From the sequence record OQ718158.1: a stretch of 64,000 nt of DNA; one strand, written 5' to 3'. Source of the stretch: Escherichia phage vB_Ec-M-J. Below the pieces are notes generated by a model. That model was given only the letters and a program-made list of their open reading frames with translations. It was not told where the DNA came from and searched no databases. The translations under genes and the position numbers were made by a program. Positions 404 through 20,189 of this stretch are shown here, piece after piece; within the stretch, counting starts at the first letter, position 1, and each line of letters starts with the position of its first letter.

Positions 404-731
404 GTTCTACATAGGGTGATGAGTTGCTGCGAACAATTCATTTACTCTACCTCCTGTCGTGAGACAGTACAGAAAAGATAGTTCCTCCTGTGGTGGTACA
501 TCTTTTTGAACCTCATATGAAAATCGTAATAACAGTACTGATATTAACAGAATGGTGTCAGTACTGATTTTAATCTAAAGCATTATGCCACCAGCACAAG
601 CTGGTGGATTCCCTCTAACAGTATTCAGTACTACATGATGGTCTTCATCCTCCTAGGGTAACATAGTGAGGGCTATGATGGCAGTACTGAATACTCCCTT
701 TCAAAAGATAGATCTATGGTATAGTACTGAC

Positions 732-1383: not shown

Positions 1384-1676
1384 TACCTAAAAACAAAATA
1401 ATTGAAAATAATTTAACGCGTTTAAACGGCCCGTAAAGCCCTGGAATGATTGGAATGGTGCAAATGTATAGCTTAGGTGTATTAATGCGTTAGAATGCGT
1501 CTGAGGCCGTTTTACGGGGTATAGGGATGATTTGGTGGATTGATTCAGTACTGAATGATAGTACTACTATATAGAAAGATAGTTCCCCTGGATGGTTGCA
1601 GTACTGAATGATAGTACTGAATAATAGTTCCCCTATATAGAAAGAAAACTATTTTAAAAGTATTTGTAGAAAGTAC

Positions 1677-3870: not shown

Positions 3871-4545
3871 ATGAAAACTATCACTACTACTACTTTCGTT
3901 ATGGATTTTTCTGAATTGAATGAGGGTTGCAAAGCGAAAACTGTCACTAATACTACTTTCGTTATGGATTTTTCTGAATTGAACGCAGAACAAAAAACGT
4001 CAGCTATCGAACTGGTTCGGGAACGTGAAAAAAACTTAAACGATGATTATTTTTCTGAAAGTGAAATTGAATACTATAAAGAAACAGTACTACCGGAATA
4101 TGGCATTAATGACGCTGAAATACAATTCAGTGGTTTTTGGTCCCAGGGTGACGGTGCATCAATCAGTACTGACCACGTTGACGCAGTGAAGTTTTTACGC
4201 AAGGTAAGAGCATTAACTAAATATCGCTCAATCCGTCACTTGCTGAATGAAGATGATTTGGCGATGAGTGTAAAGCGTTCTCACTCCCACTACTCGCATG
4301 AGAATACTGTAAGCGGGTACATTGAATCGGCTTACACTGATTTAACCGCAAAACAAGAAACGTTAGTTAATGAGCTTGAGGAACTACTCACTGAAACTAT
4401 TCGTGAATTATCCCGCAAGTTGTACCGTGATTTAGAGAATGCATATGAGGATCAATTCACTACTGAAAACATTACGGCACTGATTGAGGGTAACGAATAT
4501 CAATTCAATGTTATTAATGGCGTAGTAGAATCAATCGAATATTAA
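3871..4545 (+). CDS. hypothetical protein (224 aa) with N-terminal tandem duplication
   Basis: track ORF; TTTFVMDFSELN(E/A) repeated twice near N-terminus. Confidence 0.7.
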   Translation: MKTITTTTFVMDFSELNEGCKAKTVTNTTFVMDFSELNAEQKTSAIELVREREKNLNDDYFSESEIEYYKETVLPEYGINDAEIQFSGFWSQGDGASISTDHVDAVKFLRKVRALTKYRSIRHLLNEDDLAMSVKRSHSHYSHENTVSGYIESAYTDLTAKQETLVNELEELLTETIRELSRKLYRDLENAYEDQFTTENITALIEGNEYQFNVINGVVESIEY

Positions 4546-7335: not shown

Positions 7336-7356
7336 CAATTAAAGTACTGAATCACT

Positions 7357-7386
7357 AGCCCACTGTATAAGTGGGCTTTTTTGTGT
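7357..7386 (+). terminator. rho-independent terminator
   Basis: AGCCCACtgtataaGTGGGCT then TTTTTTG. Confidence 0.7.
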
Positions 7387-7393
7387 TTATCGT

Positions 7394-7500
7394 TTACCAG
7401 GCCACCAGCACCGCCTAGAAACGATTCTAACGTATTAAACTGTTTATCTGATGCATTGCCCTAGCTGGTGGCGTGAAGGTCGTTAGAATGCGATTGAGAG
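7394..7500. repeat. long imperfect inverted repeat
   Basis: CCACCAGC..GCTGGTGG and CGATTCTAACG..CGTTAGAATGCG arms; CGTTAGAATGCG also at ~1486 and ~11794. Confidence 0.45.
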
Positions 7501-7536
7501 CGTTTAAAGTATTTTGCAAAAAGTAATAAAAAGTAC

Positions 7537-7597
7537 TTGCACGATTAAGAGATTAGCGTATAATGTTTTACATCGAGAGGGGGAAACGGTTCTCCTT
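7537..7597 (+). promoter_or_regulatory. early promoter + 5' stem-loop
   Basis: TTGCAC-16-TATAAT-GTTTTACATC; hairpin GGGGGAAacggTTCTCC. Confidence 0.6.
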
Positions 7598-9131: not shown

Positions 9132-9182
9132 TCAAAACATCGTTAGCGGTCGATTCAGGCCGCTTATATTGGGGATTATACC

Positions 9183-9455
9183 ATGAACGTTAATCAAGTA
9201 CTGAATGAGATCGAAAGCATCATTAAACCGATGAAGCGTACTGATGCTATGTTAACACCGGAAGAATGCCGCCTTTATGAGCGTTACAGCGTCGAACAAG
9301 TCCAGGCAATGGCTATGGCTACCCCAGCCGTTAAACCGCCTGAGAATGCGTTACAGGACGTTACAGGGGATTATATCATCAATCCAGTACTAGGGAAGAT
9401 GGCTGCAATCACCGAAGATCAACAAGACTACTTAAGCCAGTACTTAAAAGGTTAA
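9183..9455 (+). CDS. hypothetical protein (90 aa)
   Basis: track ORF; RBS GGGGA. Confidence 0.55.
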   Translation: MNVNQVLNEIESIIKPMKRTDAMLTPEECRLYERYSVEQVQAMAMATPAVKPPENALQDVTGDYIINPVLGKMAAITEDQQDYLSQYLKG

Positions 9456-11723: not shown

Positions 11724-11752
11724 AGCCCACTGGTTAACGCTGGTGGGCTTTA
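11724..11752 (+). terminator. terminator-like hairpin
   Basis: AGCCCACtggttaacgctgGTGGGCT then TTTAAT. Confidence 0.45.
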
Positions 11753-11816
11753 ATCATTTACCCTATACAATGCCAGTACTAAACCGTTTATCTCGTTAGA
11801 ATGCGTTACAGGACGT

Positions 11817-12020
11817 TTGACAATGATTAGCATGAAATCAGTACAAAAACAAATAGAAACATTATCAAAAATTAAACGTAAACAATACTCGTTAGAATAT
11901 ACAATCAATGGTAACTATCATCTAATGAAAGAAAATAATTTTATAGTCATTGATGAATCATTGCAAGTTATTAGTATAGTACTGAAAGCATTAATTAATG
12001 ATAGAAAAAAATTAAAATAA
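11817..12020 (+). CDS. hypothetical protein (67 aa), AT-rich
   Basis: track ORF; no clear RBS or promoter. Confidence 0.4.
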   Translation: MTMISMKSVQKQIETLSKIKRKQYSLEYTINGNYHLMKENNFIVIDESLQVISIVLKALINDRKKLK

Positions 12021-12348: not shown

Positions 12349-12606
12349 ATGGCTGTTGGATTCGCGAAGGACGGGGCCGAGCAAGACGAGATTAACGCAG
12401 TTATTCAGGCCGCTGTAAACCACGCTAGAACGCAAATTAACGCACAAATAGAATCACTGATACATTGCCTCGACTGTGGCGATAAAATCCCTGAGAATCG
12501 CCGCCAGGTCGTTAAGGGGTGTAAGTACTGTATCACTTGCCAGGAGGATCATGATAGTACTTTTAAACGTCAACCGCGTAATTGTTGGCATAGATCTATG
12601 AGATAA
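12349..12606 (+). CDS. TraR/DksA-family C4 zinc-finger protein
   Basis: C-x2-C-x15-C-x2-C-x2-C (HCLDCGDKIPENRRQVVKGCKYCITCQ), typical of TraR/DksA zinc fingers. Confidence 0.7.
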   Translation: MAVGFAKDGAEQDEINAVIQAAVNHARTQINAQIESLIHCLDCGDKIPENRRQVVKGCKYCITCQEDHDSTFKRQPRNCWHRSMR

Positions 12607-13105: not shown

Positions 13106-13294
13106 ATGGAAAACTTATCAAGTATTTTAGTACAAGATGATTTCGGTAATCCTGGAAGTGCTATCATTGTTCGGGGTAATAAAGCAACGTTTGTTATTGC
13201 TGGTGGACCCGTACAGCGTAGCATTAAAAATAATGCTGTTACCATTAATAATGTACGCTATCGCTTAGATAAAGAATTAATTCATAAACTGTAA
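13106..13294 (+). CDS. hypothetical early protein (62 aa)
   Basis: track ORF; RBS AAGGAAAGA. Confidence 0.6.
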   Translation: MENLSSILVQDDFGNPGSAIIVRGNKATFVIAGGPVQRSIKNNAVTINNVRYRLDKELIHKL

Positions 13295-14092: not shown

Positions 14093-14146
14093 TTGTTTGC
14101 TGGTGGCTAGTACTATCAAGTACTGAAAACTATTTTTAAAAAGTAC

Positions 14147-16415: not shown

Positions 16416-16658
16416 ATGATTACTTTAGAAAAACGTATCAAAGAAACTACATCGCTGGTGGAACTGTTAACAGTACTCAAATGTAAAACAACACCATTCA
16501 GCACGCCGGACTTTATTAATATGGTTGATGTTAATGGTCGCTATCGTATCACGGTCGAACAAGGAGCGGCGAAAGTATTCAGTACTAAAAACACTAAGGA
16601 AGTGATCCACGCCGTTAATGTTAAAAAAGTAGTTGCCATTGATAGTAAAGTACTGTAA
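16416..16658 (+). CDS. hypothetical protein (80 aa)
   Basis: start moved to ATG after RBS GGGGGAAA. Confidence 0.6.
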   Translation: MITLEKRIKETTSLVELLTVLKCKTTPFSTPDFINMVDVNGRYRITVEQGAAKVFSTKNTKEVIHAVNVKKVVAIDSKVL

Positions 16659-18298: not shown

Positions 18299-18571
18299 AT
18301 GTCCAGCTACTCCGCTACTATGATCATTAAAGATATGAACGGTAATCCTACTTCTGCTGGTGGATCATTTGGAAACATTAATTTAGATGGTCGGTTATCC
18401 ATGCAATCAGCCATCGATGCAGCGAAAGAAGTTTTTAAGAATGAATGTACTGTAAGTAAGCTGGATTATATGGGATTCGCTATCGAAAAAACTAATCGTT
18501 TTGTGAACTACAAAAATCCACTGATGATCGATACTAACCTGAAAGCAAACGAAGTGGGGTACTTATTATGA
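18299..18571 (+). CDS. hypothetical early protein (90 aa)
   Basis: track ORF; RBS AAGGAAAC. Confidence 0.65.
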   Translation: MSSYSATMIIKDMNGNPTSAGGSFGNINLDGRLSMQSAIDAAKEVFKNECTVSKLDYMGFAIEKTNRFVNYKNPLMIDTNLKANEVGYLL

Positions 18572-19826: not shown

Positions 19827-20027
19827 ATGTCTATCGCTATCGCCCTGGTTGAAGTACTGAAAGAAGCTAAAGCCAACCTTATCGATGTACAGATTAAGGA
19901 ATTGCAAAACGGCTTAATCGGCTGTACTTGTACCGCTGGTGGAGCGGCAGACTATCGAGAACACGAATCACTCGAATCACTGGTTCGGTATCTTACCATG
20001 ATCGTTGATGATTGGAGAATCATCTAA
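19827..20027 (+). CDS. hypothetical early protein (66 aa)
   Basis: start moved to ATG after RBS GGAG. Confidence 0.6.
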   Translation: MSIAIALVEVLKEAKANLIDVQIKELQNGLIGCTCTAGGAADYREHESLESLVRYLTMIVDDWRII

Positions 20028-20126: not shown

Positions 20127-20189
20127 TATATAGTTAATAACGGTGAGTAACTATCTGCTGGTGGAGTGAAAACTATTAATAAAAAAGTA

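Follow-up and report, generated by a model that had tools for sequence, protein, structure and literature searches.

The stretch of DNA analysed here (the window) comprises 64,000 nucleotides of Escherichia phage vB_Ec-M-J (OQ718158.1), and the subject of the analysis is the intergenic spacer stretch at positions 7394-7500. It belongs to an intergenic region of 285 nt and lies inside a direct terminal repeat (DTR) of ~21.5 kb. This part of the window is made up of closely packed small early genes on the + strand. Most of the early genes carry a strong AAAAGTACTTGCAA-N16-TATAAT promoter and many carry an intrinsic terminator. On balance, we read the spacer as the site of two independent signals at the DNA level, namely member sites of an island of Chi octamers and one copy of a helically phased element, and not as a functional hairpin.

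The window start is the physical left end of an Asteriusvirus genome (PBECO4/121Q-like, ~350 kb). Forty-five phage records matched the region around the spacer with 87-98% identity, and all of the close ones were Asteriusvirus jumbo coliphages. The first 20,590 bases of BF17 are 100% identical to its last 20,590 bases, and the alignment of the window to BF17 starts at base 1. The opening 80 nt of the window are identical to the start of fEgEco12, for which PhageTerm gave DTRs of 20,993 bp and restriction digests confirmed them (PMC13070987). Therefore, position 1 was assigned as the left terminus and ~1-21,527 as the DTR, with a right boundary that was extrapolated from the BF17 alignment and is uncertain by a few tens of bases. 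The close relatives were isolated on E. coli or Salmonella. A distant relative, fENko-Kae01, was isolated on Klebsiella aerogenes and shares an average nucleotide identity of just 28.6% with fEgEco12 (PMC13070987). The closest relative in the database was ECO103 4-12-1, a complete unannotated genome assembled with a collapsed DTR (351,992 bp). The features that frame the spacer are given below.

1..~21527, no strand: DTR, from the BF17 alignment and the fEgEco12 terminus.
7357..7377, + strand: AGCCCACT-gtata-AGTGGGCT and a T run, the intrinsic terminator of the gene before the spacer; the G17 annotation also has a terminator here.
7530..7564, + strand: early promoter of the AAAAGTACTTGCA(A/C)-N16-TATAAT family, with a TTGCAC -35 box at 7537-7542 and a TATAAT -10 box at 7559-7564.

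The promoter was called by analogy with the many TTGCAA-N16-TATAAT sites; the promoter scan omitted it, as its -35 box matches in three of six positions.

The words CCACCAGC and GCTGGTGG of the spacer are the E. coli Chi octamer in its two orientations. The window contains 12 Chi sites against 0.48 expected, a number reached by none of 100 shuffles, and 11 of the 12 lie in the DTR, between 588 and 20,164, nine on the top strand and two (588 and 7402) on the bottom strand. They are as follows.

588..607, both strands (588 on -, 600 on +): hairpin-shaped Chi pair CCACCAGC-acaa-GCTGGTGG; non-coding, ~0.6 kb from the left terminus.
7402..7409, - strand: Chi, read as CCACCAGC on the top strand; non-coding; left arm of the inverted repeat I1 described below; intact in five of 11 orthologues.
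7464..7471, + strand: Chi, GCTGGTGG; non-coding; invariant in 11 of 11 Asteriusvirus orthologues including EJP2.
11739..11746, + strand: Chi in a terminator stem; non-coding.
13199..13206, + strand: Chi; coding.
14099..14106, + strand: Chi; intergenic.
16454..16461, + strand: Chi; coding.
18356..18363, + strand: Chi; coding.
19935..19942, + strand: Chi; coding.
20157..20164, + strand: Chi; intergenic; the first met from the right end of the right DTR copy, ~1.4 kb in.

The enrichment was also found in the complete genome of ECO103 4-12-1. Its 28 Chi sites are divided into 11 in the DTR, which amounts to 6% of the genome, and 17 in the remaining 331 kb, a tenfold difference in density. Among G+C-rich octamers, Chi is the commonest in the DTR; its 168 permutations occur there with a mean of 0.40 copies, and the runner-up reaches four. 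Codon usage can explain the frequency of Chi in E. coli (10.1101/2021.07.08.451572). It fails to explain the Chi sites of the DTR, because seven of the 11 (588, 600, 7402, 7464, 11739, 14099 and 20157) are non-coding and the other four are in differing codon phases. The annotated 19,736-bp DTR of fENko-Kae01 holds 14 Chi sites (12 top, two bottom) against two in the following 30 kb, and the enrichment in the terminal repeat thus spans two jumbo-phage genera.

The orientation of the sites is related to the physical ends. The RecBCD of such enterobacterial hosts recognises GCTGGTGG. A Chi site is active only if RecBCD approaches this word from the right (10.1101/2021.07.08.451572). When RecBCD enters at the right end, it runs leftward through the nine top-strand sites, the first of which is met at ~1.4 kb (375 bp in fENko-Kae01). 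When it enters at the left end, the bottom-strand sites are at 588 and 7402 (484 and 7013 in fENko-Kae01). A correctly oriented Chi is thereby located within ~0.4-1.4 kb of each physical end. A back-to-back CCACCAGC-N4-GCTGGTGG pair ~0.5 kb from the left end is common to the two genera; the pair at 588-607 is a perfect 8-bp hairpin with a 4-nt loop, and fENko-Kae01 has the same layout at 484-503. Chi is unmentioned in the Asteriusvirus papers found, and neither Chi nor RecBCD appears in the fEgEco12 paper (PMC13070987). Likewise, no mention of a Chi island confined to a DTR was present in the Asteriusvirus or Chi papers found.

Three further observations on Chi were made. Four Chi sites of fENko-Kae01 (3711, 9192, 16840 and 18721) are in promoter spacers and abut the -10 box, for example in TTGACT-actttat-GCTGGTGG-ga-TATACT. 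In BF17, five bottom-strand sites fall within paralogous - strand genes at 338,494-362,903, before the right DTR, some of which are annotated as RCC1-like; this run explains part of the Chi count outside the repeat. The T5 repeat contains two sites, both on the top strand, at ~8127 and ~8689.

The second signal is recognised by the 12-mer CGTTAGAATGCG, the core of an element of ~40 bp composed of three or four helically phased 10-bp units with the consensus CGWTnnAnnG. Its layout is (TTAAnnn) CGTTAGAATG / CG[A/T]TnnAGnn / CGTTT[T/A]Annn, where CG[T/A]T opens each unit. Hypervariable positions separate the conserved blocks with a period of ~10 bp, about one helical turn. The copies are given below.

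1481..1521, + strand: element copy 1; nhmmer E 7.5e-11; in the non-coding left-terminal region; kept in all relatives examined.
7476..7515, + strand: element copy 2, with its core at 7481-7492; nhmmer E 7.5e-10; units CGTTAGAATG / CGATTGAGAG / CGTTTAAAGT.
11787..11828, + strand: element copy 3; units CGTTTATCT / CGTTAGAATG / CGTTACAGGA / CGTTTGACAA.
9141..9169, + strand: degenerate fourth copy, CGTTAGCGGTCGATTCAGGCCGCTTATAT; E 0.3.
7424..7439, - strand: partial inverted copy, TTTAATACGTTAGAAT on the bottom strand; left arm of the inverted repeat I2 described below; weak nhmmer match, E 16 (0.37 at the orthologous ECO103 site).

The initial annotation had pointed to this 12-mer as a recurrent motif with further copies at ~1486 and ~11794, and this was borne out. 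There are three exact copies in the window, at 1488, 7481 and 11794, of which the two outside the spacer are non-coding as had been stated. A motif search across the 352-kb genome of ECO103 4-12-1 gave three exact copies against ~0.04 expected by an arithmetic estimate, a count far above chance; all of them are in the DTR and on the + strand. The two constituent 10-mers of the 12-mer do not occur elsewhere in that genome. When two or fewer mismatches were allowed, the window contained six matches against 2.9 expected, which is no enrichment. A profile of the copies, run against the whole genome of the relative, detected only the three strong sites and the two weak ones in the DTR (9141 and 7424-7439), and no significant match outside the DTR was obtained in these 352 kb. 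The three sites are orthologous and kept in nine other Asteriusviruses. In these phages, a + strand Chi is placed 9 nt 5' of copy 2 and 47 nt 5' of copy 3, and a Chi ~32 nt 5' of copy 1 is found in 121Q and UB and not in this window. Copy 3 lies between the terminator that contains Chi, 44 nt away, and a 65-aa gene that starts 29 nt further on. In addition, an in-frame CCTGAGAATGCGTTACAGGACGTT almost identical to element copy 3 is located at 9339-9362 within the open reading frame (ORF) 9183-9455, which suggests past recombination between spacer and gene or capture of the element by the ORF.

The element was also found outside the Asteriusviruses. In IMG/VR, a 25-nt pattern with 19 specified bases was confined to T5-like contigs and to 121Q, which has it three times; those sites that were located in T5 and 121Q fall in the terminal repeats. 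The downstream 18-mer of the element occurs at only two loci in IMG/VR, and a literature search for the 11-mer string returned only one irrelevant plant paper. The best T5 copy (copy A, AY543070 9343-9383) is inside the annotated injection-stop region and was previously unannotated. It lies ~50 nt past the last pre-early terminator and ~55 nt before palindrome D and the DnaA-box repeats. Two more T5 copies correspond to the annotated inverted repeats B and B' (IRB and IRB'), which flank the HNH gene hegG. The nhmmer E values are 1e-9 to 1e-11 for the three window copies and T5 copy A, 9.5e-8 for IRB' and 1.7e-3 for IRB. The palindrome D of T5 (ACTGTATAAATATACAGT) is ~40 nt 3' of copy A and has the form of a LexA box, CTGT-N8-ACAG.

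The counterparts in T5 are IRB/IRB' and the sequence just 5' of inverted repeat D' in the injection-stop region (AY587007, AY543070; Davison preprint 10.1101/866236). Both phage groups share a sequence of 25-40 nt, CGTTAGAA[T/A]GCG-N4-AGG-N-CG[T/C]TT..., and the more general pattern CGTTAGAA[T/A]GCG-N4-AG-N2-CG[T/C]TT with its conserved flanks is present in both. In both, there are three copies per repeat, restricted to the terminal repeat, located in non-coding DNA past terminators and conserved across the genus. On the other hand, two of the T5 copies are inverted around the HNH gene and each of two copies is ~55 nt from a cluster of DnaA boxes, whereas the three strong Asteriusvirus copies are all direct and their repeat has no consensus DnaA box. 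No DnaA box (TT[A/T]TNCACA) was found in window positions 1-22000, and a T5-like injection-stop region in the DTR, with paired DnaA boxes in large inverted repeats beside the element, was rejected on this ground. Outside the element, the two repeats resemble each other in neither DNA nor protein, and tblastx gave no match between them.

Variants of the element are more widely distributed. They occur directly 5' of sigma-70 promoters in two contigs (243 kb, a jumbo phage, and 118 kb), with the hexamer TACAGT or TACGGA, and beside an HNH gene junction in ~52-kb phages. In two phage groups, variants are 5' of terminase small-subunit genes, in one group 67-79 nt upstream of the small-subunit gene (PHROG 57) and in the other ~1.5 kb from a gp3-type small subunit. 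A link with packaging was considered, as the terminase proximity is suggestive of closeness to a genome end; it was set aside as too inconsistent to build on. An E. coli variant, CGTTATATTGCGATTGAGAGCGTTTAA, is present in genomic islands of ~10% of complete genomes. Its form GGCCGTTATATTGCGATTGAGAGCGTTTAA with ~200 nt of conserved flank was found in genomic islands of 523 of 5426 complete genomes, ~42 nt 5' of a divergent 90-aa hypothetical gene (~4001-4031 of loci L149 and L150). The context of these E. coli islands gives no functional clue to the element.

The spacer had at first been described as one long imperfect inverted repeat, able to form a cruciform or a long hairpin between a terminator and the next promoter. 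Its position between the terminator at 7357-7377 and the TTGCAC-N16-TATAAT promoter at 7537-7564 is right, and all of the quoted words are present, but they do not compose a single inverted repeat. CCACCAGC is at 7402-7409 and GCTGGTGG at 7464-7471; they form the core of the inverted repeat I1 (7398-7409 / 7464-7475), which the repeat finder reported with a length of 12 nt, one mismatch and 92% complementarity. CGATTCTAACG is at 7422-7432 and CGTTAGAATGCG at 7481-7492, and their complementary part is limited to ATTCTAACG/CGTTAGAAT, reported as the perfect 9-nt inverted repeat I2 (7424-7432 / 7481-7489). The order of the arms is A (7398-7409), B (7424-7432), A' (7464-7475) and B' (7481-7489). 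Since this order is interleaved, the two pairs are mutually exclusive in a simple hairpin and one long hairpin is impossible. The minimum-energy folds pair I1 only, and folding of both strands gave z-scores of -1.6 for the + strand RNA, -0.2 for the - strand RNA and -0.8 for the DNA, which are not clearly beyond those of shuffled sequences.

For a comparative test, the spacers of 11 Asteriusviruses were aligned and the pairs were counted; their average identity of 84% limits the power of the covariation test. The right arm GCTGGTGG of I1 is unchanged in all 11, the divergent EJP2 included. The left arm is CCACCAGC in five, CCACTAGC in four and CCGTCAGC in 121Q, and is absent in EJP2, and no compensation for these left-arm changes was seen among the 11 spacers. 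The right arm CGTTAGAAT of I2 is changed in TH47, slurp01, A4 and CMSTMSU with no matching change in the left arm ATTCTAACG. Across the 11 spacers, no pair of I2 and one pair of I1 were changed on both sides, many cells were broken, and the covariation score was not above that of shuffled controls, as 112 of 500 shuffles attained it. In G17, half of the left arm of I2 is deleted. In EJP2, the whole left half is missing while Chi and the element are kept. The result indicated that the arms are kept as sequence words and not as pairing partners. The tRNA model found no tRNA in the region, and Rfam gave nothing at the gathering score; a looser threshold gave hits only on or overlapping the terminator hairpin. 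A tRNA-like origin of GTTAGAAT, suggested by its resemblance to a D-arm, was rejected as no tRNA was found and no anticodon stem could be drawn.

Some observations would nevertheless suit a long RNA hairpin or a DNA cruciform that acts, for instance, in attenuation, in processing or as the target of a protein. The arms do exist, and where five phages have T for C in the left Chi arm, a G-U pair is still permitted in the + strand RNA. In the 285-nt spacer, one perfect 9-nt inverted repeat is ordinary (P ~0.10 in shuffles), but three inverted repeats of at least 8 nt, the terminator among them, are richer than in shuffles (P ~0.004). Against these stand the interleaved pairs, the fold z-scores of -1.6, -0.2 and -0.8, a covariation at the level of shuffles, and the loss of arm sequence in G17 and EJP2. 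Moreover, little RNA is expected 3' of a strong terminator. A functional hairpin is consequently judged to be very improbable. Inverted repeats in such early regions can be a chance juxtaposition of oriented words, and this should be considered in their annotation.

A linear phage genome must survive RecBCD and join its terminal repeats before replication. In P1 and its relatives, the terminal redundancy is rich in Chi, and recombination between the repeats by RecBCD and RecA has been proposed (Subramaniam and Smith, bioRxiv 10.1101/2021.07.08.451572; cited in PMC12315714). The features of the Asteriusvirus island are similar. In both, a linear genome with terminal redundancy has the host Chi octamer clustered within or close to its terminal repeats, no octamer of like composition is more frequent, and the sites are oriented so that RecBCD from either end meets an active Chi. 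P1 differs in being a temperate phage packaged by headful, with permuted ends of ~5-10 kb and 50 Chi sites over ~20-40 kb. In contrast, the phages described here are virulent jumbo phages with exact, non-permuted repeats of 20-21 kb, an island of 11-14 Chi sites inside the repeats and a conserved back-to-back Chi hairpin 0.5 kb from one end. The direct observations are the octamer itself, an enrichment that is confined to the DTR, sites oriented with respect to defined ends, and conservation of the pattern between genera; dependence on RecBCD, which was demonstrated for P1, would apply here by analogy.

By this analogy, the Chi island probably controls RecBCD and promotes recombination between the DTR copies, as proposed for P1. 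The linear DNA that is injected carries a DTR copy at either end, and each end therefore has Chi sites nearby. Recognition of Chi would switch RecBCD from degradation to the loading of RecA on a 3' tail, and the ends would be spared. The 3' tail would be homologous to the other DTR copy, and recombination between the copies could produce circles or concatemers. With this island, a strategy already known gains a new example. If the proposal is true, a tenfold, DTR-confined Chi island would make the P1 idea applicable to large virulent phages that have fixed ends, and phages would exploit Chi and host recombination and not merely inhibit RecBCD.

Several points weigh against our reading of the spacer. 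A possible phage-encoded RecBCD inhibitor may make Chi irrelevant. The left-hand Chi at 7402 is not conserved, being intact in five of 11 orthologues. The 9:2 strand bias of Chi follows the direction of transcription, and another strand-linked cause is possible. The T5 repeat has just two Chi sites. As for the element, its central hexamer TAGAAT resembles a -10 box, and its copies in some phages are directly 5' of sigma-70 promoters or a terminase small-subunit gene, so a transcriptional or packaging role is possible. The enrichment of Chi could moreover be a by-product unrelated to RecBCD, if the octamer were part of a phage repeat such as terminator stems and promoter spacers, or the site of a phage protein. 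In agreement with this, the terminator-stem words CTGGTGGG and GGTGGGCT are also raised (four copies each), one Chi is in a terminator stem and four of fENko-Kae01 are in promoter spacers, and the far stronger over-representation of CAGTACTG shows that the genome does use private words. However, Chi occurs in varied contexts, namely within genes in three different frames, in spacers, in a stem and in a hairpin. The exact 8-mer tops the G+C-rich words in two genera with little nucleotide similarity between their DTRs, the word is exactly the host Chi while both hosts are enterobacteria, and its placement suits the physical ends. A by-product is thus improbable in our judgement, and control of RecBCD by the Chi island is preferred.

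With regard to its function, the element is probably a double-stranded DNA site for a protein that binds one face of the helix, most simply a host factor. This view is based on the helical periodicity, the lack of RNA covariation, the inconsistent orientation to transcription, which varies among the phage groups, and the occurrence in unrelated enterobacterial phages. Covariation between the hypervariable 4-nt blocks was rejected, as the same left block occurs with many different right blocks. A mini-ORF, MR(L/Y)R(P/A/T)F, from the ATG in the 12-mer was rejected as well; the ATG is lost in slurp01 (AAG) and A4 (ACG), no consistent Shine-Dalgarno sequence is present, and the T5 variation does not suit codons. 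Among the consensuses of IHF, Fis, CRP, the LacI family, boxA and sigma-28/32/54/E, compared by eye only and as leads, none suits all copies. A weak promoter, a packaging or entry signal and a recombination boundary are possible roles.

In the first of these, the 12-mer would be a sigma-70 promoter without a -35 box, with TAGAAT as the -10 box, G at -14 and a GCG discriminator, and would give short-leader transcripts or a small RNA. Transcripts of the next gene were envisaged for copy 3 and for a similar module in another locus (L061). TAGAAT agrees with TATAAT in five of six positions, and the variant of the E. coli islands has TATATT. Copy 3 is past a strong terminator with no other promoter and is followed by AGGA at +16 and ATG at +29, and locus L061 has the same module with AGGAGG and ATG. 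On the contrary, the scan reports no promoter at 1488, 7481 or 11794, where its requirement of -35 and -10 boxes spaced by 16-18 bp is unmet. The homologous copies have TACGGA, TACAGT, TAGCGG, TAGAAA and TAGAAC, and the critical last T is thus not conserved. T5 copy A has no downstream gene, the element faces against transcription in T1-like loci, and its conservation continues for 30 nt 3' of the hexamer, which is atypical of a -10 box. A promoter is accordingly considered unlikely. The element could also mark a recombination boundary or be the footprint of a mobile cassette, for instance a target or junction of a homing endonuclease, and its distribution would then reflect horizontal transfer and not a shared function. 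In two loci (L025 and L081), homology stops right past the element and an HNH gene abuts (Pfam HNH_3, E 1.8e-8), the inserted HNH gene hegG of T5 stands between copies B and B', and the early region is highly mosaic. However, beyond the element there is no homology in DNA or protein between the repeats of T5 and the Asteriusviruses. The retention of the element at three orthologous sites throughout the genus and across T5-like phages argues for selection on the element itself, and a mere footprint is regarded as quite improbable.

A relation to the DeoR operator, TGTTAGAA-TTCTAACA, was also weighed. If GTTAGAAT were a DeoR half-site, it would tie functions of the DTR to deoxyribose-5-phosphate from the degradation of host DNA. 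GTTAGAAT and ATTCTAAC are exact half-operator words; the former equals operator positions 2-9 (8/8), and ATTCTAACG matches the other half in 8/9. The operator sequence and the binding of DeoR to a lone TTAGAATA were reported (PMC5326754). All five GTTAGAAT words of the window are in the DTR, and T5, which dumps deoxynucleosides via Dmp, has the gene for it in its repeat. Nevertheless, the 16-bp palindrome is absent at the element, and a search with up to three mismatches gave two weak window matches elsewhere against 6.6 expected. The two half-sites are divergent and 48 bp apart, the count of the GTTAGAAT 8-mer (five against 4.2 expected) is not over-represented, the homologous elements have TAT, CAG or CGG in place of GAA, and the other conserved blocks (GCG, AG and CGTTT) are unrelated to the operator. 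DeoR binding is therefore thought to be highly unlikely.

Returning to a site for a DNA-binding protein, the distribution of the element allows a more specific and speculative idea. The element might be a terminal-repeat signal that two unrelated virulent lineages, the Asterius-like jumbo myoviruses and the T5-like siphoviruses, have in common and that a host protein reads in the first minutes of infection, although we would rate this as rather unlikely. For example, the entering DNA could be paused or anchored as at the T5 injection stop, or end-to-end recombination could be organised with the adjacent Chi. If so, Asteriusviruses would share a T5-like staged entry or end processing, and the 40-bp element would become a candidate for the cis-acting component of the first-step transfer of T5. 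In any case, the shared ~40-bp element allows the conserved repeat regions of T5, a puzzle for decades, to be approached by comparison.

Other features of the terminal repeat were recorded. The Asteriusvirus early region is highly mosaic. At 7336-7578, the similarity to the 121Q/A4/G17 subgroup ends directly past the -10 box of the 7559-7564 promoter (~7578), and this break fits gene shuffling through recombination at repeated promoters. Arbiol and colleagues reportedly described in 2010 that promoter-plus-stem-loop cassettes shuffle early genes in T4-type phages. As in those cassettes, the small early genes are dense, each has a near-identical strong promoter and a terminator, and homology breakpoints are found at promoters; the Chi sites and the phased element are additional and are not known from those cassettes. 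The DTR also contains, at 12349-12606, a gene for a DksA-like C4 zinc-finger protein, so annotated in BF17 and 121Q, which hints at early manipulation of the host RNA polymerase by the phage.

The leftmost 1.7 kb (1-1700) is non-coding and rich in repeats, with a 10-bp unit repeated 3.4 times at 65-98 and arrays of 8, 24 and 32 bp at 809-917 (CTAGACGG and related). These repeats may serve for recognition by terminase or for functions of the genome end. For the palindromic octamer CAGTACTG, 57 copies were counted in the window against 0.55 expected (for example at 390, 533, 559, 682, 1074, 1546 and 1599). With 36 copies, it is the commonest octamer of the DTR, and words that contain AGTACT likewise head the octamer list of fENko-Kae01. 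The word probably either serves an abundant dimeric DNA-binding protein as its site or forms a piece of promoter context.

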